Origin: a virus
Taxonomy: Duplodnaviria; Heunggongvirae; Uroviricota; Caudoviricetes
Length of the DNA: 10,631 nucleotides
Virus record (IMG/VR): IMGVR_UViG_2703718802_000006
Strand: one strand, 5' to 3'
Shown: positions 2,731 to 10,631 of the stretch, in pieces
How positions within the stretch are numbered: the stretch's first letter is position 1
How the letters are laid out: the number at the start of each line of letters is the position of its first letter
Program-made: the position numbers and the translations under genes
The notes under the pieces: generated by a model
Databases searched by the model: none
Seen by the model: the letters and a program-made list of their open reading frames with translations, nothing else
What the model was told of the DNA's origin: nothing

Positions 2731-2856
2731 ATGTCTGCACCTGCACTGCCTGATGTCAGAACAGTATTTTGATGAATTGCCAAGGTTACAATGGCACAAA
2801 TACGGCACAGGAGGAAACGTGGTGTATTTAAATATGGGGTAACTCTTTGATTTTAA

Positions 2857-2875
2857 TGGTGCCGATAATAGGAGT
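2857..2875 (-). other. attR core: 19-nt 3'-terminal fragment of tRNA-Thr (thrW-type, ptwF-like), not a functional tRNA
   Basis: Minus strand 2875->2857 reads ACTCCTATTATCGGCACCA: the end of the T-arm, the 3' acceptor strand TATCGGC (complementary to a 5' GCCGATA), discriminator A and CCA. The match to a tRNA body stops at 2876 (C where the T-stem needs G). The CCA end faces the pao/yagP flank and the 5' side faces the integrase, as expected for the duplicated core at the attR end of a tRNA-integrated element. Confidence 0.7.
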
Positions 2876-2876
2876 G

Positions 2877-2990
2877 TAACACGCGATAAATCTTGTGTTC
2901 GGGTCTTCTTCTACGACCTTCGCAACTACCTGATTTAACGATTTTTACGCACACTGATAATCTGGCATTCATCATGCACATGATAAACGC
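2877..2990 (+). repeat. Imperfect direct repeats of a CAC-N-(T)GATAA motif in the att arm between core and int (candidate integrase arm-type sites or int promoter elements)
   Basis: cacgcGATAAa at 2880-2890, cacacTGATAAtc at 2951-2962, cacaTGATAAac at 2977-2988. The last two are 26 bp apart and lie immediately upstream of the int start. Confidence 0.3.
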
Positions 2991-3014
2991 CCCTAAACTT
3001 TAACGGGGTGGAAA

Positions 3015-4229
3015 ATGAAATACAAGCCGGATCAATACATCATCTCTGATAGTTACGGAGTTTATTACGTCAGGATCTCAATTCCTATATGGCTTCGTAA
3101 TGCATTTGGTGGAAGAAAAACTCTCGTCCGTAGTCTGAACACTTCCGATCTTCGTGTGGCACGTAGGAAGCGTGATGTTATAGCAGACGAGTTTCACCAC
3201 ATCAGGCAAATTGCAGAGCCACCAAAACCGGACAGCCTGCAGGACACAATCAGCTATCTAAAGAGCGTTGCTAAGTACGCAAAAGCTGCCCCGAAAGCAT
3301 CAGCGCCAATTATCTCCCAATGCCCCTCTCTGAATAAGATGTTGGAGATTTACCTCACGCATAACGCTGATCGCCTGAAAATTGGAACATTAAGCAAGAC
3401 CAGGAAAGCCGTAGAACTGTTTCTGAATTACCTGCGAAAGAAGGATGTGGAACTAAACGATATCAACCGTACCACCGTTACAGGCTGGCTTGATCATCTC
3501 CGAGAAACAAAGGCAGTCCAAACAGTGGCTAACTATCTTTCTGCAATGGCAAACATTCTCGATCTTGCCTCTTCCCGATACCAGGACGCCCCACAGCTGG
3601 AAAGTAACGTATTCAGAGGGCATAAACTCAACACAGCGCAGAGCCGCCAGAGTTACGAGGCATTCACGGACGAAGAAATTACGAAGCTCATTAGCACGTT
3701 TAACAAGTTAGGAGAGGACGAATTAAGGGATTTAAGCGCCATAGCCGCTTATAGCGGAATGCGCATCAATGAAATAGCCAGTTTGAAATCTGACAATATC
3801 CGTGAAGTTGAGGGGGTGTTATGTTTCGATGTATTGGAAGGAAAGACAGCTAACGCTTCCAGGCTAATCCCATGCCATAGTGCGATTAAAACAATGGTCC
3901 TGGAACGCTGCCAGAAGCCGCACAACGGCTTTTTATTTTACCGTGCAAGTGTGACCAAGAGAGAGGACGGCAAGCGCTCCTCATGGCACGTAAACCGCTT
4001 TGGACGGCTTAAACGCGATATTCTCCCAGGGCAAGAAAACAAGGTGTTTCACTCGTACCGCCATGCCGTGATCAGTAAGCTAAACGCCGCCGGAGTGGAT
4101 GAATCTCGTATTGCCTTGCTCGCGGGCCACTCATTTGGAGAAACTGAATCTTTCAAGACGTATTCGAAATCCGTTCCTGAGCGAATAGTGAAGGAACTAA
4201 AAGAATATATCGAATTAATCAAATATTAA
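3015..4229 (+). CDS. Tyrosine-type site-specific integrase (phage integrase family), 404 aa
   Basis: ATG at 3015 with a G-rich SD (GGGGTGG). Box I Arg context (AYSGMRINEIASL), box II HxxR (FHSYRHAVISKL), a downstream LAGHS His and a C-terminal Tyr (FKTYSKS). The N-terminus (GVYYVRISIP...GGRKTLVRSLNTSDLRVARRKRD) matches the pattern of N-terminal arm-binding domains of island/P4-type integrases. Located next to the tRNA-derived att core. Confidence 0.9.
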   Translation: MKYKPDQYIISDSYGVYYVRISIPIWLRNAFGGRKTLVRSLNTSDLRVARRKRDVIADEFHHIRQIAEPPKPDSLQDTISYLKSVAKYAKAAPKASAPIISQCPSLNKMLEIYLTHNADRLKIGTLSKTRKAVELFLNYLRKKDVELNDINRTTVTGWLDHLRETKAVQTVANYLSAMANILDLASSRYQDAPQLESNVFRGHKLNTAQSRQSYEAFTDEEITKLISTFNKLGEDELRDLSAIAAYSGMRINEIASLKSDNIREVEGVLCFDVLEGKTANASRLIPCHSAIKTMVLERCQKPHNGFLFYRASVTKREDGKRSSWHVNRFGRLKRDILPGQENKVFHSYRHAVISKLNAAGVDESRIALLAGHSFGETESFKTYSKSVPERIVKELKEYIELIKY

Positions 4230-4243
4230 AATACCTTAAATGT

Positions 4244-4270
4244 GAGGGGGAATCCCCCTCTATTTTATTT
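4244..4270 (+). terminator. Bidirectional rho-independent terminator between convergent int and the 92-aa gene
   Basis: Perfect inverted repeat GAGGGGG-aat-CCCCCTC (4244-4260) followed by TATTTTATTT. The T-tract overlaps the stop codon (4265-4267) of the convergent minus-strand gene. Confidence 0.7.
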
Positions 4271-4543
4271 ATACCATACACTTTGCATATATTGCGATGT
4301 TTCAGATGAAATATTATACCAATATGCATAATTATTTGTTGCATCTACAACTATCAATTTATCATCACTATCCATCGCTTTATGAACTATTTGCGCTGCC
4401 TGTTCAGAATTGTAATGTGAATTAACATACCAATTTGATTCTGTAACTTTGACTGCTACGCCCAATGATTTAATAGCTTCGTAAACTGCTGGATAGTTTT
4501 TAGTTTTGATCAAGTCATAGGTTACAAAAAGATTGTTAGCCAT
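4265..4543 (-). CDS. Hypothetical 92-aa protein, AT-rich; predicted alternating beta/alpha pattern loosely reminiscent of Cas2/VapD-like ferredoxin-fold small nucleases (speculative)
   Basis: ATG at 4543-4541 with GGAGAG SD 8 nt upstream; stop at 4265. N-terminus LFVTYDL followed by a helix-like segment then VAVKVTESNWYVNS resembles the beta1-alpha1-beta2 start of Cas2/VapD-type proteins. Aromatic-rich C-terminus. No confident family assignment. Confidence 0.6.
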   Translation of the reverse strand: MANNLFVTYDLIKTKNYPAVYEAIKSLGVAVKVTESNWYVNSHYNSEQAAQIVHKAMDSDDKLIVVDATNNYAYWYNISSETSQYMQSVWYK

Positions 4544-4601
4544 TTTATTCTCTCCAGAGATTCAAAAGAATAAGCGCCGCTATAGGCGCTTTGAGATGTT
4601 T

Positions 4602-4730
4602 TTATTTCTTAGCTTTCTTGGTAGGGATTTTGATAGTTTCAGTTACCGTAGTGTCAGGATGTCTTTTAGCTTCAATGGGCTTAACAAACTGACCAGTTAT
4701 CGCAGAACGAACTACTGTTTTCTTAGCCAT
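4602..4730 (-). CDS. Hypothetical 42-aa basic small protein (MAKKTVVRSAITGQFVKPIEAKRHPDTTVTETIKIPTKKAKK), first gene of a two-gene cassette
   Basis: Internal ATG at 4730-4728 preceded by GAGGTG SD (5-nt spacer). The longer track ORF from 4832 adds a Cys-rich, low-complexity N-terminal extension with no SD and is unlikely. Lys-rich termini suggest nucleic-acid binding. A hairpin (4572-4591) plus U-rich tract separates it from the 92-aa gene. Confidence 0.4.
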   Translation of the reverse strand: MAKKTVVRSAITGQFVKPIEAKRHPDTTVTETIKIPTKKAKK

Positions 4731-4881
4731 AAAACACCTCATCTTGGAGATAAAGAGTGAACTGCTTACCCTTTTAAGAATAAGGGACAAACGAAGCGGC
4801 GTCAAAGAAAAAACACCACATATACACATCATTTACAAAACAAGCGCAATATGTGGTATCTCCATGCGATTTACATCACAA

Positions 4882-6753
4882 TCACCCCCCTGTGCTGCTC
4901 TGACCGCTCAAGGCTGACAAGGTGAGCGACTGTGTAAAACTGGCTTGTGAGGCTCTCGCCTGGAAATCAATGTAATCGCTCAGCCTTGAGCTATCGCTGG
5001 CGATAGTTAGCGGAACAGACGCTTCAAGATTGAGATTGAATACAGGTGCAAGATTGTACGCTGGCGCACTATTGGTGCTGGTTAGGGATGATATAGCAGA
5101 ATCACGAAGCGCTCCCCCTTTCAGAGAATCACCATTCAGGCCGTATTGTTCTACCGCTGTCCCTGTAGGCTGATCATCTATCCCTAACCAACCTTTAACG
5201 GCATGACCTACACTACGGCTGTCCCACCCTGTCTTGTCCTGCACCCAATCGGCAGCACTGTTGGCACTTCCTGTAACAGCACCATCATACAAACTCTGTG
5301 CCGCTGGCTTATCGCTACCAGTGAACCATTGAGGGAAACGTTCTTTCAGCCCTGCATTGATATCACTCACAACACTGGAAATCTCACCCACAAACCCAGT
5401 GATTTCTTTCGAGAGATTGCCTAAGCCCTCTCCAAGCATTCCCGCCGCTTCGGTGATAATTTTGGTTTTCCTTACCAGATCGTCGCCCCCATCGGCAAAG
5501 CCTTTCATCCAGCCTGTAAACAACTGATTGTCTATTCCATTCATCAGATTACCCATAGCAACACTCAAATCGCCATACTCATAAACCTGCTTGATCATTT
5601 CGTCGTTCAGCGTCTGACCGGACTCAATGAGAGTTCTTAGCGTCTTGTTATACTCTGCACCGTTGTTCATGAACATATCGGTGTAGTGCATCAGGTCATC
5701 ACCTAAACTCTCAATCAGCGTACCAATCTGAGCCTGTGACATACCACGGCGTTGCCCTTCATTCACCGTAGCTTGAACAAAATCGAGTGGTGAATCTTGG
5801 AACTTGGAAATCTGATCCTTACTCCATCCAAATTTGTTCATTATCGACGTAATGCCACCATCCCCACCCTTCCATTCGCCATTCTTCATTTGAGCATCGT
5901 TAACAGTCATGGCGAGGCGTTCACGCACATCTTTCATGTTATCGACGGCTTTTGAGGTATTAGCTGAATCAACACCGTGTTGCTGTCCCCAGGCCACCAT
6001 CGTTTTTATGGCGTTTGGGTTGGTTTTCACACGTTCACTCATTCTCACCAGTTCGAGGTTATCATTCCCTTTGTCAATAATTCGCTGCCCCACTCCGAGG
6101 GAGCCAGCCGTTAACGCAAGGCTTCCTAATACCCCACCACCGACGATAGGAGCATTCCCGCCCTTCTGAGCCTTTAGCTTAGTGGCTGCTGCGGCATACT
6201 GGGTACGCTGTGCCTGTGTCACTTTGGCTTGCTGTGCGGCTTCTCTGCGTAACAGGGTTACACGCTCACGAATAGATGCGTTCATACGGGCACTGGTCAG
6301 ATTGCCTTTGGCAAATTCCTCTGTTTGCTGACGTATGAAACGTAACGCTTCATATTGAGATTTAAGATCAAGTCCGTATTTACCTTTAATTCCTGACACT
6401 TGTAGCCCTGCATGGCGAAGTTTAAGCTCGGCTGTCTCTTGGTGCTTCTGTAGCTGCTGCTTCGCTTTCAGATTGGCCTTTTCATCCCTGGCTTTCTGCT
6501 TCTCTGCCGCACGTTGGGCTTTCATTTCCTTCGTATCACGAGGTTTATCATTAAAACGTGCATCATCGGCTTGTTGACGAGCTTTCTGTCTGCGCTGCTT
6601 CTGAGCCTGGAAGCGAATCTTGGGATCGGCTATTTTCTGGAAGTGCTTTTGAAGGTTATCCGCTGCGGCTTTAGCCAGAGCAATGCTCTGCTTATCCACC
6701 ACGAATGTAACCGTATTGCGGATCTGACTGACCGAAATATCAAGCATCGCCAC
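4882..6753 (-). CDS. Phage tail tape-measure-like protein (about 621-623 aa): N-terminal Lys/Gln/Ala-rich coiled coil, Gly-rich hydrophobic segment, globular C-terminal part
   Basis: Track start at 6753 is a GTG; an in-frame ATG lies at 6747-6745, with an 8-nt overlap with the upstream 65-aa ORF. The coiled-coil stretch (KAQRAAEKQKARDEKANLKAKQQLQKHQ...) and the GGGVLGSLALTAGSLGVG segment are typical of tape-measure proteins. The family call is by composition and architecture only. Confidence 0.55.
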   Translation of the reverse strand: MAMLDISVSQIRNTVTFVVDKQSIALAKAAADNLQKHFQKIADPKIRFQAQKQRRQKARQQADDARFNDKPRDTKEMKAQRAAEKQKARDEKANLKAKQQLQKHQETAELKLRHAGLQVSGIKGKYGLDLKSQYEALRFIRQQTEEFAKGNLTSARMNASIRERVTLLRREAAQQAKVTQAQRTQYAAAATKLKAQKGGNAPIVGGGVLGSLALTAGSLGVGQRIIDKGNDNLELVRMSERVKTNPNAIKTMVAWGQQHGVDSANTSKAVDNMKDVRERLAMTVNDAQMKNGEWKGGDGGITSIMNKFGWSKDQISKFQDSPLDFVQATVNEGQRRGMSQAQIGTLIESLGDDLMHYTDMFMNNGAEYNKTLRTLIESGQTLNDEMIKQVYEYGDLSVAMGNLMNGIDNQLFTGWMKGFADGGDDLVRKTKIITEAAGMLGEGLGNLSKEITGFVGEISSVVSDINAGLKERFPQWFTGSDKPAAQSLYDGAVTGSANSAADWVQDKTGWDSRSVGHAVKGWLGIDDQPTGTAVEQYGLNGDSLKGGALRDSAISSLTSTNSAPAYNLAPVFNLNLEASVPLTIASDSSRLSDYIDFQARASQASFTQSLTLSALSGQSSTGG

Positions 6754-6937
6754 CGCCTTTCTTACTCACCAGATAATTAAGTGCATCTGATACACTACGC
6801 CCACGATGTAATAACTGACGTAGATGACCGTGATCTATTTCAAGCACACGACACACTCCCGCCAGATTTAATAACTCTTCTGCTGTTTCAGCATTTACGG
6901 CGAGGTGAAGCCCCGCGCTTTTTACAATCACTTGCAT
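6740..6937 (-). CDS. Hypothetical 65-aa protein, translationally coupled to the downstream tape-measure-like gene
   Basis: ATG at 6937-6935 with AGAGGAAAG SD (about 8-nt spacer). Stop TGA at 6742-6740 overlaps the ATG (6747-6745) of the next gene in the arrangement ATGCTTGA. Confidence 0.45.
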   Translation of the reverse strand: MQVIVKSAGLHLAVNAETAEELLNLAGVCRVLEIDHGHLRQLLHRGRSVSDALNYLVSKKGGGDA

Positions 6938-6960
6938 TTATCTTTCCTCTTATTCTGGAA

Positions 6961-6995
6961 ATAAAAAAGGGCGGGAACACTGGGGAGATGTTCCC
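6961..6995 (-). terminator. Rho-independent terminator downstream of the capsid gene (second of two tandem hairpins)
   Basis: On the minus strand: GGGAACA-tctccccag-TGTTCCC (6995-6973) followed by GCCC and TTTTTT (6968-6963). A second hairpin (7019-7046, stem AGCCTGA/TCAGGCT) lies just 3' of the capsid stop, with a weaker U-tract. Confidence 0.65.
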
Positions 6996-7058
6996 AACGT
7001 TCACACGCCCTATTCAAAAGCCTGATTATTGCCTGCGGGTCAGGCTCCCGCTTGCTCA

Positions 7059-8090
7059 TTAAGCAGTGATGGTGATCTTCACTTGCATACCTAACGCATG
7101 GTTCACTGGTAATGCGCTGTTTTCGTGCATAACGTGGTAAGCATCGCCGCGCTCGCTCAGGTAGCCCCAAGAGTAGTATTCAGCAGGTGCAGCATCGATC
7201 AGCGCGAAGTTGCCAGAGGCAGCGCCGTAGATGTTCTGATAAGCATTTGTGCCTTTACTGAATACCGGAACCGCCACCATGTCAGCATCATCTGGCATCT
7301 GTGCAAGGATCAGCGGATCTGTCACTTTAACAATGTCGATAGGCGCACCAGGTAGGCTAAACGTACTAACACCAGGGAGAAGCTCGTGACGCTGGTAGAA
7401 TAGGTTACGGTCGTCATATGGCGCTACATACTGGAACGCCTTAGACATACTGTCAGAGAAGCGAATCTGGCTAAATGCAGCAGGTTTAGCGAATACGATC
7501 ACTCGTTCAATCTGTCCAGCCAATCCACCTGCGGCAGCCTGAACTTTGTCTAAGATGGCATCAAAATCCTGTGCCGCTGTCGCTGTGCTCACGCTGGCTG
7601 TCATTGGCACCACACCGAACAGTTCAGCATAAGAGATCAGTAGGTCATCAGTTGCAGGCGTATAAACTTCACCTTTGAACAGAGCACGGGCCAGGTAGGA
7701 TTCACGGGTACGAAGATAGGCAATCTTATGTTTCCCTGTGTACTCGGTGTACAGGTCGGTAACGGTTTGCTCGTAGTCCGTGCCTTGCACCCTTTTCCCT
7801 TGTACGTCTACTGGTTTGAAGGTGTCTTCCCTCGCAAACCAAGGGATCTCCACCAAATATTCTTTACCATTCTGACGCGCGGTAGTGTCGTGGCTTGATG
7901 AATAACGACTCTGCGGGGTGTTAAACAGGCTGTAGTTATCATCCAGAAGCTGTGTCACCACCACTTTCGGATTCTGAACACCTACCCCGTCGAAGAGGTC
8001 GAGAGCATTCATAAGATAGTTACGTTCCGGCAGAGCCTGGAAGATTGGCGCTAAATCGACCATCTCACGCCCAATTGCGATTTTACTCAT
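7059..8090 (-). CDS. Phage major capsid protein (lambda gpE-like family), 343 aa
   Basis: ATG at 8090 with AAGGAAG SD. Size (343 aa) and sequence character fit E-type major capsid proteins, and it sits immediately downstream of a gpD-like decoration gene (D-then-E order as in lambda). Strong terminator downstream. Confidence 0.75.
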   Translation of the reverse strand: MSKIAIGREMVDLAPIFQALPERNYLMNALDLFDGVGVQNPKVVVTQLLDDNYSLFNTPQSRYSSSHDTTARQNGKEYLVEIPWFAREDTFKPVDVQGKRVQGTDYEQTVTDLYTEYTGKHKIAYLRTRESYLARALFKGEVYTPATDDLLISYAELFGVVPMTASVSTATAAQDFDAILDKVQAAAGGLAGQIERVIVFAKPAAFSQIRFSDSMSKAFQYVAPYDDRNLFYQRHELLPGVSTFSLPGAPIDIVKVTDPLILAQMPDDADMVAVPVFSKGTNAYQNIYGAASGNFALIDAAPAEYYSWGYLSERGDAYHVMHENSALPVNHALGMQVKITITA

Positions 8091-8106
8091 TATTTATCTT
8101 CCTTGA

Positions 8107-8466
8107 TTAAGAGGTGAAGAATGGACGGCATACGAACCCTTTGGATTCGAGCGTGGTGATAGCTGCGGCGTGATTAGCTGCGTGCAGGTTGTCGGCTTTC
8201 AGTGCTACGAAGCTGCCAACATTAGGCGCACGTAGGACATTCACGGTTTTACCGTCGCCAGCACTCACGAAATCACTTACCACCACAAAGGCATCATCGC
8301 CGGAGGTGTATAGAGCGCCATCAGCGCCGATAACATCGCCGCATTCAATATCTGCTGGCAGGTCGAAAACACGGCCTTCTACGACTGCAAAAGAATCAGT
8401 GGCGTAGCTCACTACGTCAGTGAAACTCTTACGAATTGGGAAAAGTTCGGTTAGGTCTACAATCAT
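8107..8466 (-). CDS. Putative head decoration protein (lambda gpD-like), 119 aa
   Basis: ATG at 8466 overlaps the stop of the upstream 71-aa ORF (ATGA), with AAGGAA SD. Small Gly/Ala/Val-rich beta-type protein directly preceding the major capsid gene. Assignment is by position and composition only. Confidence 0.5.
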   Translation of the reverse strand: MIVDLTELFPIRKSFTDVVSYATDSFAVVEGRVFDLPADIECGDVIGADGALYTSGDDAFVVVSDFVSAGDGKTVNVLRAPNVGSFVALKADNLHAANHAAAITTLESKGFVCRPFFTS

Positions 8467-8678
8467 TGTTGTTTGATTTCCTTGGATTTGATTGCGATCC
8501 GTTCCTGCATACTAAGTTGAGGTGTGTCCTCAGAAGGGAAATACTGGTCTACAGCTTTTTCTATTTCTTCAACGGTACATCCTGCCATTTCAGCCACTTT
8601 AGCTATTAACTCAGGATTAACTTGAATCACTTCGGATTTGTATTTTAGGATTCGGTCGCGATTGTTTATTAAGAACAT
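8463..8678 (-). CDS. Hypothetical 71-aa protein, first gene of the capsid operon; possible HTH-like segment (LIAKVAEMAGCTVEEIEKAV)
   Basis: ATG at 8678 with GAAGGAACAACACA upstream. Four-nt overlap with the decoration gene start. Function unknown. Confidence 0.5.
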   Translation of the reverse strand: MFLINNRDRILKYKSEVIQVNPELIAKVAEMAGCTVEEIEKAVDQYFPSEDTPQLSMQERIAIKSKEIKQQ

Positions 8679-8747
8679 TGTGTTGTTCCTTCGCGTTATA
8701 ACTGCGTTTATCCTTCCATTAATAACGGAAGTGTTACATGCAGATTG

Positions 8748-8771
8748 TTAAAAAGGGGCGATTAAGCCCCT
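8748..8771 (-). terminator. Rho-independent terminator (minus strand) at the 3' end of the ~670-bp non-coding region, just upstream of the capsid operon promoter
   Basis: Minus strand reads AGGGGC-ttaatc-GCCCCT followed by TTTT (stem 8771-8766 / 8759-8754, T-tract 8753-8750). Confidence 0.6.
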
Positions 8772-9347
8772 GGAGAATATGCCCTTGTTAGAAAGCATTC
8801 TGTTAAAATCATTTTCGTTTCGGAGGATTATGATGTTAAAGAAAGGTTTCTTGAAAAAATGAAGGGCGCAACTGTTACGAATAACAGAAGTAGGATCGCC
8901 CGTCATTGCTCCCACTTCAAAACAGAAGCCCTTCTGTCATGGCGAGAAGTGGGAATGGAATTTCTTATCACCCTGGAATAGTAATAAGAGATTGCCAGCC
9001 TGAACGTAACTACCACTGACGGCGTTTATTCAGTCTGACTGCTTATAATCCTAACGGGGTTATAAGGTTTAGAGCACGGAATATGCTCTCTGAAAGAGAA
9101 TGTGCGCGGTGATTGTTCGTTACCACCCGACACAAGTGGGAACGCCCGCGCCACCCTTTGGAACTAAACACAACAAAGGAAAACAACCAGCTTTCAGAGA
9201 GGATATTCAATGGGAGAGAGCGCCGCCTATGGGAAACGGCATTCTCAGGGAGTGCGTATTGTTATACGAGGGTGGAGTGATTCTAATACCTACCCTATAA
9301 CTTATTATGACACAAATAGCACAATATGTCAAGATATTTCGTAATAT

Positions 9348-9686
9348 TTATGTTATAGCGCATTCTTCCGCGATCTGGATGGCAAGCTCTCCGAGTTCAA
9401 CGGTGATGTGTTCCATAGCGAGGGCAAGCTCCTCCATATCATTGGCAATGCGCCACGCCTGATCCACGGTGACGGTATCCCCGTTCATCTGCACCAGGTG
9501 CTCTACAGCAGCATTCCAGTGTTCAAGGGCGGTGATTGCCTGTTCAGTGTATTGCAGCGCTTCCAGGAGCGCGGAGGGCGTTCTCTCACACCACGCCCTA
9601 TTAACAAGCCACAGGGCTGGTAGATGCCAAATATCGTGGAAATAGTTAATTAGGGTGTTCATGGTGTCCATAGTTTTATTATTCAT
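9348..9686 (-). CDS. Hypothetical 112-aa acidic, predicted helical protein (second gene of a coupled pair)
   Basis: ATG at 9686-9684 preceded by AAGGAA (7-nt spacer). Its start overlaps the stop of the upstream 127-aa gene as ATGAATAA. The 161-aa track ORF from 9833 is an out-of-frame extension into the 127-aa gene and is rejected. Confidence 0.5.
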   Translation of the reverse strand: MNNKTMDTMNTLINYFHDIWHLPALWLVNRAWCERTPSALLEALQYTEQAITALEHWNAAVEHLVQMNGDTVTVDQAWRIANDMEELALAMEHITVELGELAIQIAEECAIT

Positions 9687-10062
9687 TGTTGTTTTCCTTG
9701 TCGTCAAAGAGAATATCAAAATCTTGTATGTGGTGAGATAAGCCGTTAGTTTGGGAATACCCCACCCAGTCAACATAGTTTTCTGCGTATAGCTGCCACT
9801 TCTTAAGATTCGATGAATCAACACGGTATTCACGGCGGCGGCGTGGTTTATAGAAGACGTTATCCGAAGATGCTAAAACATCCTGCAATAGTTCAAACTC
9901 TGCCCCTACGGGCACCGTTGCAGGGTATTCTATTATTTCGGTGATCCATTCTCCTGGAATAGACTCTCGTGCGAGGTCTTGTAGAGAAGAGGTGTATTTA
10001 CGTTTGCTGGCGCGAGTGGCTTTTTCGATTCTAACAATGTTACTTCGTTCTTTTCGTCCCAT
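9679..10062 (-). CDS. Hypothetical 127-aa protein with basic N-terminus and acidic C-terminal tail
   Basis: ATG at 10062 with GAGGAA SD. N-terminus is Arg/Lys-rich (MGRKERSNIVRIEKATRASKRKY), there is an internal KPRRRREYR stretch, and the tail is acidic (FDDKENNNE). Stop TAA at 9681-9679 overlaps the next gene. Confidence 0.5.
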   Translation of the reverse strand: MGRKERSNIVRIEKATRASKRKYTSSLQDLARESIPGEWITEIIEYPATVPVGAEFELLQDVLASSDNVFYKPRRRREYRVDSSNLKKWQLYAENYVDWVGYSQTNGLSHHIQDFDILFDDKENNNE

Positions 10063-10076
10063 TCATTCCTCGTAGA

Positions 10077-10161
10077 GGGAAACTTCCGTGTTTTCTCGTT
10101 AATGTCCATACTGCGTAAAATGCAAATAACCAATACATAGCGATGATCATAAAAGTTTCCC
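10077..10161. promoter_or_regulatory. Pair of 9-bp inverted repeats (GGGAAACTT / AAGTTTCCC) bracketing the intergenic promoter region upstream of the 127-aa/112-aa pair
   Basis: GGGAAACTT at 10077-10085 and its exact reverse complement AAGTTTCCC at 10153-10161, 67 bp apart, inside the 109-bp gap between the 94-aa gene stop and the 127-aa gene start. Confidence 0.35.
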
Positions 10162-10171
10162 TATTGTGTGT

Positions 10172-10456
10172 TTAGAAATTAGAGTAGATAAATTCTACAT
10201 TGTCTCGTTCGATGTGTTTCAGCGTGAATGATAGATAATGGCTTTCATCGTCGATATCGATCACACCAATGTTGCGCAGCGCACGAAGCCAGAATCTGAT
10301 CCCGTTATCACTTACACTGGATTTATCAGATAGCTCTCCGTAAGAAATTTTAGTTTTTCTGCCCTTCCAGAACCAGATAAGCGCATAATAAACGCCCTTC
10401 CCGCTATCGTTGATCTGTATCTGGTTTGTGTTGTTCAATTTTATGTATTGTATCAA
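10172..10456 (-). CDS. Hypothetical 94-aa protein, putative winged-helix-type DNA-binding regulator; TTG start
   Basis: The ORF contains no ATG or Met codon. Its first codon is TTG (10456-10454), preceded by a perfect AGGAGG SD with a 5-nt spacer. The segment ISYGELSDKSSVSDNGIRFWLRALRNIGVI resembles a recognition helix plus wing. AT-rich. Confidence 0.5.
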   Translation of the reverse strand: MIQYIKLNNTNQIQINDSGKGVYYALIWFWKGRKTKISYGELSDKSSVSDNGIRFWLRALRNIGVIDIDDESHYLSFTLKHIERDNVEFIYSNF

Positions 10457-10469
10457 TTAGTCCTCCTGA

Positions 10470-10601
10470 TTAGTTCCAGTGGCGTTGTATTGTGGCGATC
10501 CCTTTCTTCATTAGTTCAGCCGTTTGTCTTTGGGTCAATCCTTTGGATTTGTGTTCCTGTACTTCTTTACGGGTGTTGTTACCTTTAACTTTCTTTCTCA
10601 C
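10470..10601 (-). CDS. Possible 43-aa helix-turn-helix small protein (GTG start), very tentative
   Basis: Minus-strand ORF from GTG at 10601 to TAA at 10472-10470 translates to MRKKVKGNNTRKEVQEHKSKGLTQRQTAELMKKGIATIQRHWN. The segment LTQRQTAELMKKGIATIQRHW has a helix-turn-helix pattern. No good SD and a non-ATG start; below the ORF track size cut-off. Confidence 0.25.
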   Translation of the reverse strand: MRKKVKGNNTRKEVQEHKSKGLTQRQTAELMKKGIATIQRHWN

Positions 10602-10631
10602 TTTCTAGACTGGCCCCCTGAATCTCCAGAC

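Follow-up and report, generated by a model that had tools for sequence, protein, structure and literature searches.

Enterobacterial islands with capsid, decoration and tape-measure genes, probably satellites of phi92/phAPEC8-type phages

Here we report that a stretch of viral DNA of 10,631 nucleotides (IMG/VR record IMGVR_UViG_2703718802_000006; hereafter the window) carries one copy of an integrative island belonging to a widespread, apparently undescribed family. These islands encode a major capsid protein, its decoration protein, a homolog of the tail tape-measure protein (TMP) and often a tube initiator, and most likely (at a probability of roughly 0.6) they are satellites of the ~150-kb phi92/phAPEC8-type phages (Stephanstirmvirinae). 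We infer a helper-dependent mobile element because the TMP and tube initiator follow phage lineages, and because an integrase, interchangeable replicases and a size of ~13 kb go with them. An earlier interpretation of the window from its letters alone (the sequence-only reading) had wavered between a decayed prophage and a capsid-encoding satellite; the satellite is the better supported of the two, while this particular copy is itself decayed, having been cut by IS2.

Structural genes and the island family

The three minus-strand open reading frames (ORFs) of 71, 119 and 343 aa that had been described as an operon are present as such, and the identities proposed for the second and third hold (Table 1). 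The 343-aa protein matches Pfam Phage_cap_E (PF03864) over its full length (E 1e-13) as well as PHROG 29, major head protein; its family profile finds phi92 gp124 (E 3.8e-18) and PhiTE (E 3.5e-15) in the PDB, and hhalign pairs it with Stephanstirmvirinae capsid proteins at 98% probability and 19% identity. The 119-aa protein shows both the decoration fold and a gene adjoining a lambda-E-type capsid gene, the two marks of a gpD-like protein; against the Phapecoctavirus head decoration protein hhalign gave a probability of just 7%, the fold comparison being the sole link. The first gene product, p71, has no Pfam or PHROG family match and is possibly a scaffold or assembly factor. Its gene overlaps that of the decoration protein by ATGA (stop/start), and good ribosome-binding sites precede the 119-aa and 343-aa genes.

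Pseudogenization was looked for among relatives of the capsid genes, and the copies are intact. Ratios of nonsynonymous to synonymous substitution (dN/dS) are 0.06-0.11 for the capsid gene, 0.10-0.33 for decoration, 0.12-0.23 for p71, 0.10-0.27 for p65 and 0.13-0.25 for the TMP, and all five module genes are under purifying selection. Across loci the capsid gene is always paired with an adjoining cognate decoration gene. Cement proteins of the gpD type bind assembled shells or capsid lattices and, to judge from general phage biology, real capsids are presumably assembled, because the cognate cement gene constantly accompanies the capsid gene. Relatives of the capsid protein form 52 database clusters among 5.8 billion proteins, all named ones being from Enterobacterales; all 52 are closely related to the island protein, and each locus examined was an island copy. 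Among phages, tblastn of the capsid protein found only a Curvibacter phage, at 27% identity.

The sequence-only reading had found no tail genes, and here it was wrong, as the ORF at 4882-6753 encodes a TMP homolog (PHROG 16051, tail length tape-measure protein, E 1.4e-96). Residues 180-623 align with residues 223-659 of phi92 gp134 (phmmer, E 2.6e-69), blastp gives 31-33% identity along the full length, and a joint alignment shows N- and C-terminal motifs in common with phage TMPs, the C-terminal one with the matching phage. By tblastn the window TMP matched 139 of 50,697 phage records, the matches listed being ~150-kb phAPEC8/phi92-type myoviruses, where the homolog is located after the sheath, tube and chaperone genes. 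In the cryo-electron microscopy structure of phi92, gp134 is a trimeric TMP whose C-terminus lies centrally within the baseplate interior beside the hub protein gp137, and which is ejected upon contraction (PMC13450770). Island TMPs are 613-630 aa long against 635-662 aa in the phages (12-49 aa shorter); because this length is constrained, general phage biology suggests that the island TMP acts as a ruler in real tails. For the small protein p65, encoded between the capsid protein and the TMP, hhalign found no similarity to the small ORF that precedes the TMP in the phage, and the idea that the two correspond was rejected.

A tube-initiator homolog follows the TMP gene directly, in the same place as in the phage, at 22 island loci (L050, which supplied the query, and 21 sister loci). 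Its match to phi92 gp135 has E 4e-79, and with the Phapecoctavirus protein it shares 56% identity. The subgroup to which the window belongs is without this gene; the sister islands hold it in the slot between TMP and integrase. In L006, a distant relative on a metagenome contig and the only locus without a TMP, a Kiwa defense system (KwaA/KwaB; 9566-11108) lies between p65 and the integrase in place of the TMP. Matches to the TMP gene were also seen on plasmids of 225-280 kb, and the 92-kb E. coli plasmid pCP53-92k holds an IS5-truncated fragment of a related island (7057-10686: integrase, helix-turn-helix protein, TMP, p66). Plasmids with a TMP gene were considered as phage-plasmid helpers and rejected, since pCP53-92k, the one inspected, proved to be such an insertion sequence (IS)-truncated fragment.

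Four divergent island TMP variants, searched against the same 50,697 records, match only Stephanstirmvirinae-type phages, and different variants match different lineages: the three other than that of the window are nearest to Justusliebigvirus and phiWec188, to Citrobacter phage Tr1, and to Klebsiella phages FBKp34 and KP13-16. By the joint alignment, the window TMP shares 35-36% identity with phage TMPs versus 18-30% with those of other island subgroups, and the TMPs of loci L017 and L048 share 27-28% with that of FBKp34 versus 17-22% with those of other island subgroups. Island capsid proteins are 40-99% identical to one another and ~19% identical to those of Stephanstirmvirinae, which belong to the same family. 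These comparisons indicate that the TMP and tube initiator track phage lineages, and that the capsid shell genes form an old, island-specific lineage.

The same island occurs in E. coli strain XYEH3934 (locus L002) at 99.9% identity and without IS2, and there measures 13.5 kb from a ptwF-like repeat to thrW, within the 10-15 kb that had been proposed as favoring a satellite. Its order is integrase, 92-aa and 42-aa ORFs, TMP, p65, capsid, decoration, p71, a 0.65-kb non-coding region, p112, p127, p94, an SF2 helicase of 494 aa (Pfam DEAD/ResIII, PHROG 2467), a ribbon-helix-helix protein p54, p57, a 1.4-kb non-coding region, a 193-aa protein and a few small ORFs. Neither the window nor this 13.5-kb island gave a Pfam or PHROG match to a portal, protease, terminase, connector, sheath, tube or baseplate gene. 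The lack of portal, protease and terminase noted earlier is thus confirmed for the window, and annotation of the rest of the element gave no portal, terminase or tail gene beyond it, the TMP homolog excepted, and no normal prophage layout. The intact island is an integrative element with an integrase, attachment repeats and a partial set of structural genes, as is general among satellites.

We gathered about 40 loci (nine from reference genomes, 29 from IMG/VR proviruses, and metagenome contigs), nearly all with one gene order, in Escherichia, Enterobacter, Klebsiella, Citrobacter, Kluyvera, Buttiauxella, Scandinavium and Pseudenterobacter. The shared order runs from the small recombinase (the 193-aa protein) through a replication module, three small ORFs, p71, decoration, capsid, p65, TMP and often the tube initiator to the integrase. 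No locus has a fuller head or tail module, and the gene tables of the related loci list no portal, protease, connector or terminase. The replication slot holds either a helicase or an O-like initiator with a helix-turn-helix protein, interchangeably between loci; integrases are 31% to 100% identical, and the integration sites differ, being thrW here and tRNA-Gly in a sister group. In known satellites, too, replication modules and integrases are interchangeable. Near-identical modules occur in different genera, and of 5426 complete E. coli genomes 546 have the tRNA-Gly variant module (284 of them at coverage of at least 80%). Metagenome contigs of ~13 kb with the capsid gene were considered as free elements and rejected, their ends (a tRNA gene and an apparent transposase fragment) marking chromosomal assembly breaks. 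Keyword and protein-accession searches, with subscription journals mostly outside their coverage, returned no description of the island family in the literature.

Non-coding regions and the setting of the window copy

Transcription of the capsid operon differs from what had been supposed. The terminator said to insulate it upstream is real: the hairpin at 8771-8748 has a folding energy of -11.5 kcal/mol (z -3.4), is followed by U5, and its stem differs from locus to locus by compensatory substitutions (GGGGC/GCCCC versus GGCGAC/GTCGCC, for instance). The claim that the operon has its own promoter fails, as the ~70 nt between this terminator and p71 contain no sigma-70 match, and the strong, near-consensus promoter at 9332-9304 (11 of 12 positions) lies upstream of the terminator and is predicted to drive a ~550-nt RNA ending there. 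To judge from its sequence, the 0.65-kb spacer upstream of p71 is thus a transcription unit of its own, with a promoter, ~550 nt without a conserved ORF, and a terminator. Downstream of the capsid gene the reported tandem terminators are found as two hairpins which, like the upstream terminator, fold far better than shuffled sequence; they do not close the module, however, since p65 and the TMP follow directly in a conserved order. They are probably an attenuator that lowers expression of p65 and TMP relative to the abundant capsid protein. A terminator is annotated after the capsid gene of phage FBKp34 as well.

The region of the non-coding RNA is better conserved than the adjoining genes, and of the 93 pairs in its RNAalifold structure 32 show compensatory changes. 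Pairing holds in 92.8% of cells, versus 39-50% in slid-partner controls, and double changes fall in 32 pairs versus 10-16, with the caveat that this alignment is also the one from which the structure comes. A covariance model of the 5' domain matches in 18 of 44 sources searched, and in none of the tRNA-Gly group, the most distant relatives or the phages among them; no Rfam family matches the island's non-coding regions, the structured RNA included. As a guess, this RNA is a leader or attenuator of the capsid operon, and it is a candidate new RNA family. The second large non-coding region, conserved among islands, has a 29-nt core (L002 30675-30703) that is 93% identical even in the distant tRNA-Gly group, and may serve as an origin or as a site of recombination or packaging. 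The small recombinase next to it, which has the tyrosine-recombinase catalytic domain only, may function in multimer resolution or directionality.

Over its full length the window matches E. coli RM10410 (NZ_CP042350.1) exactly. Chromosomal DNA with paoC, paoD and a shortened LysR gene (yagP') makes up 1-2730, and the foreign island, of lower GC content, occupies ~2839-10605 at the thrW/ptwF site, variant islands beginning to match the window at 2839. For prophages thrW is known as a hot spot, and CP4-6 of K-12 resides there. In the XYEH3934 island the direct repeat pairs 20157-20181 and 20212-20225 with 33685-33723. The ptwF-like repeat of the window is likewise in two parts, 24 nt that match the 3' end of thrW and, beyond ~30 unrelated bases, another match of 14 nt, which suggests the scars of more than one integration event at the hot spot. 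In the chromosomal yagP'/ptwF flank, a stretch of 176 bp (2700-2875) recurs at 100% identity where the record of Escherichia phage phi458 ends, labelled 'tail assembly protein' there; this was the sole match of the island DNA in the 50,697 phage records and probably reflects host DNA or a common attachment-site flank in that record.

At its other end the island is broken by IS2 (L001 27933-29260 in RM10410) within the helicase gene, of which RM10410 retains only the last ~37 codons (residues 458-494 of 494). Identity with XYEH3934 stops at 10605 and an IS2 transposase is annotated next; bases 10606-10631 themselves we take to be the IS2 inverted repeat. The RM10410 DNA beyond is IS-rich and unrelated, with fragments of IS2, IS100, IS3 and IS66. 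The window copy is therefore an IS2-truncated, decayed member of the family that has lost most of its replication and regulatory half, and is probably immobile. Among the smaller genes, p112, p127 and p94 have no Pfam or PHROG family; the 92-aa protein has a weak PADLOC match to Cas2 (E 3e-4), and between its gene and that of the integrase a GC-rich palindromic hairpin at 4244-4260 could terminate transcription in both directions.

Table 1. Features of the island. Positions are those of the window unless a locus is named (L002, the intact island of XYEH3934; L050, a sister island).
Feature	Position	Strand	Remarks
Left attachment repeat and island edge: ptwF-like partial copy of tRNA-Thr (thrW) 3' end	2856..2924	-	In XYEH3934, pairs with thrW as a direct repeat
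Tyrosine integrase, 404 aa, DUF6538 + Phage_integrase	3015..4229	+	PF00589 E 4.6e-11; PF20172 E 6.9e-11; PHROG 1 E 5e-34
Accessory slot between TMP and integrase: 92-aa protein (p92) 4265-4543 (PHROG 1090) and 42-aa ORF 4602-4730	4265..4730	-	
TMP homolog, 623 aa from GTG at 6753	4882..6753	-	PHROG 16051; RefSeq start is ATG at 6747
p65, conserved small protein; predicted beta-hairpin and three helices	6740..6937	-	Stop overlaps TMP start
Two terminator-like hairpins 3' of the capsid gene, the second with a U6 tract	6962..7050 (within 6958-7058)	-	
Major capsid protein, 343 aa, lambda-E / phi92 gp124 type	7059..8090	-	Pfam PF03864
Capsid decoration (cement) protein, 119 aa, gpD-like fold	8107..8466	-	
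p71, small acidic protein, 71 aa, first operon gene	8463..8678	-	Position and sequence kept across loci
Sigma-70 promoter 9332-9304, ~550-nt non-coding RNA 9297-8745, intrinsic terminator 8771-8748	8745..9332	-	Directly upstream of the capsid operon
Three conserved small ORFs: p112 9348-9686, p127 9679-10062, p94 10172-10456	9348..10456	-	Syntenic in most loci
3' remnant of the island SF2 helicase (replication module)	10470..10605	-	Full 494-aa gene in XYEH3934
Start of the RM10410-specific IS2 insertion, cutting the island	10606..10631	+	XYEH3934 identity stops at 10605; IS2 transposase annotated next
Second large non-coding region, 1.4 kb, between p57 and small recombinase	L002 29523-30893		Conserved among islands
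193-aa conserved protein, tyrosine-recombinase catalytic domain only	L002 30894-31475		Besides the full integrase at the opposite island end
Tube-initiator homolog of a sister island	L050 12787-13500		RefSeq label 'phage baseplate protein'

The satellite model and its alternatives

The proposed life cycle would begin with infection by the helper, upon which the integrase would excise the island and its own replicase would copy it (the SF2 helicase in the window variant, the O-like initiator in others). Read-through of the terminator of the structured RNA would allow expression of p71, decoration and capsid proteins, and weaker read-through of the second attenuator that of p65 and TMP. The capsid and cement proteins would then form small shells for 13.5 kb rather than the T=13 shell in which the helper packs 150 kb, presumably on the helper's portal and scaffold/protease, and the helper terminase would fill them. 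The head of phi92 is of the T=13 kind (PMC13450770), and a small satellite capsid is plausible because 13.5 kb stands against 150 kb in such a head. The island TMP (with the tube initiator in sister elements) would dock in the helper baseplate hub and nucleate helper tube and sheath, and tails built around it would join island capsids, the helper providing sheath, tube, baseplate, fibers, neck proteins and lysis functions. A TMP of its own may serve the island for capture of helper tails, control of DNA ejection, or interference with the helper.

Several observations weigh against this model. The capsid protein is just ~19% identical to those of Stephanstirmvirinae, so that assembly on a helper portal and scaffold is not obvious, and the TMPs are 27-40% identical to those of the supposed helpers, which suggests that the true helpers may be unsampled relatives. 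Sensitive blastn of both large non-coding regions against the 50,697 records found no phage match, and with it no common pac/cos site; neither a small terminase nor a cos/pac site nor an AlpA-type regulator was identified on the island. The predicted circular attP junction was absent from viral and metagenome contigs, a result of little weight for a rare variant. To our knowledge no satellite encodes a TMP.

The main rival, which we consider unlikely but which could coexist with satellite behavior, is a defense island of structural mimics, in which the TMP, tube initiator and capsid protein would be dominant-negative decoys that poison Stephanstirmvirinae virion assembly while the island itself is not packaged. 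The proteins that would contact helper parts are indeed the most phage-like (the tube initiator at 56% identity, the TMP in its shared termini), the TMP slot adjoins the integrase, where defense cargo sits in satellites and islands and where L006 has Kiwa, and mobile elements are known to use interference with tail assembly for defense, as in the Tai systems (PMC11364771). A decoy would have no need of a fixed TMP length, however, and a cognate decoration protein would be superfluous to it, yet the pairing of capsid and decoration genes is invariable and the constraint on them strong. The exchangeable replication modules and integrases, together with near-identical modules across genera, point to an element that amplifies and moves; no PADLOC defense model fits the module, p94 giving only a weak match to mad1. 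Decoys and satellites are moreover not exclusive of one another, as satellites interfere with their helpers too.

Slightly less probable still is a satellite or other helper-dependent element of a different, unsampled helper, in which case the likeness of its TMP to Stephanstirmvirinae would reflect common ancestry of tail modules and no more. The modest identity of the TMP to known phages (27-40%) and a capsid protein without a close phage relative, the Curvibacter phage being its only tblastn match, would agree with such a helper. It would leave unexplained that four divergent TMPs and the tube initiator match Stephanstirmvirinae only, with different variants matching different lineages, and that the order from TMP to tube initiator is that of the phage genomes.

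The decayed cryptic prophage of the sequence-only reading, in which the capsid genes would be what remained once a lambdoid or myovirus prophage had shed the rest of its morphogenesis genes, is very improbable. The site is a prophage hot spot, the surrounding RM10410 region is IS-rich and the window copy is cut by IS2, and one truncated copy lies on a plasmid, all of which would suit a decaying element. The same minimal genes nevertheless recur in the same order in ~40 loci, in several genera and at different integration sites, with intact ORFs at dN/dS of 0.06-0.33 and never a fuller head or tail module, whereas random decay would not leave an identical gene set repeatedly; beside the module in RM10410, XYEH3934 and AR_0128 we found no lambdoid head-region genes or pseudogene remnants. 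A self-sufficient particle or compartment, such as a gene-transfer-agent-like or encapsulin-like shell, can be all but set aside, for although HK97-fold shells can assemble portal-free and the island has both shell and cement protein, it has no gene able to package DNA and no obvious cargo enzyme, and its conserved TMP and tube initiator make sense only with a contractile tail that it does not encode.

Based on these observations, we suggest helper-dependent satellites as the best account of the islands, and put forward, more tentatively, a fuller picture that we would not yet call the probable one: a new satellite class, common in E. coli and its relatives and dependent on virulent 150-kb phi92/phAPEC8-type myoviruses, that would bring its own decorated capsid and, for the tail, an inner core (tape measure, alone or with tube initiator) and so reprogram both heads and tails of the helper, its TMP swapped to suit the helper lineage and a novel ~550-nt structured leader RNA gating the late operon. 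If true, these would be the first described satellites of virulent large myoviruses infecting E. coli and Klebsiella, and a satellite-encoded tape measure would be a new means to exploit or sabotage a helper, raising the question of a TMP role other than in tail length. Phages of the Stephanstirmvirinae type are widely used in therapy cocktails; host strains that bear the island could, if the model is right, reduce phage yield, spread island DNA via lysates and contaminate phage preparations. Of the complete E. coli genomes searched, ~5-10% have the family, which occurs in Klebsiella, Enterobacter and Citrobacter too, and its genes bear in RefSeq only the labels 'major capsid protein', hypothetical protein and 'TolA'.

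Comparison with known satellites and with the phages

The comparison with PICI, cf-PICI and P4-like satellites that the sequence-only reading had called for places the islands in none of those families. They fail defining features of each, and of PLE as well, and thus make up a new family. SatelliteFinder covers P4-like, PICI, cf-PICI and PLE satellites, so that islands fitting none of them would go unreported as satellites; a 2026 survey of Enterobacter satellites, for example, screens only these four families (PMC13612085).

In overall plan the islands resemble cf-PICIs, which are also integrative islands of ~13 kb with their own HK97-fold major capsid protein (and so presumably satellite-sized capsids), a replication module and an accessory or defense slot, and which otherwise depend on a phage. 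They differ in encoding portal, protease, head-tail connectors and TerS/TerL, and in stealing tails only; the present islands have none of those genes and bring in their place a decoration protein and a TMP, often with a tube initiator. No AlpA-type regulator, as in cf-PICIs and PICIs, was recognized on the island. From classical PICIs the islands are set apart by their capsid, decoration and TMP genes, and Pfam and PHROG searches found no terS, cpm, ppi or rpp homolog on the island.

With PLEs the islands would share dependence on a virulent myovirus, integration, predicted self-replication upon infection, and small capsids. PLEs are restricted to Vibrio (host V. cholerae), have ICP1 as helper and a large serine recombinase, and remodel the helper coat protein by the external scaffold TcaP, with no capsid protein or TMP of their own. 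The present hosts are enterobacterial and the recombinase is a tyrosine recombinase, and Pfam and PHROG gave no matching families (RepA, TcaP), nor was there any sign of kinship to PLEs in sequence. P4-like elements resemble the islands as enterobacterial elements of 11-13 kb at a tRNA gene with a capsid-decoration function (Psu in P4), and the RNA and terminator upstream of their late genes (the P4 CI RNA) may be an analog of the structured RNA described here. P4 uses the capsid protein of P2, whereas the islands encode their own, and Pfam and PHROG gave no homolog of Sid, Psu, Delta, the alpha-primase or alpA/vis on the island.

A further close relation is to the virion module of the Stephanstirmvirinae themselves (in phi92, gp123/gp124 of the head, the TMP gp134 and the tube initiator gp135), with which the islands share full-length TMP homology, the capsid family, the decoration fold, the order from TMP to tube initiator and, in at least one member (FBKp34), a terminator after the capsid gene. 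Of some 30 virion genes, however, the islands keep two to four, and they carry them on an integrative element of 13.5 kb where the phages have a virulent genome of 150 kb.

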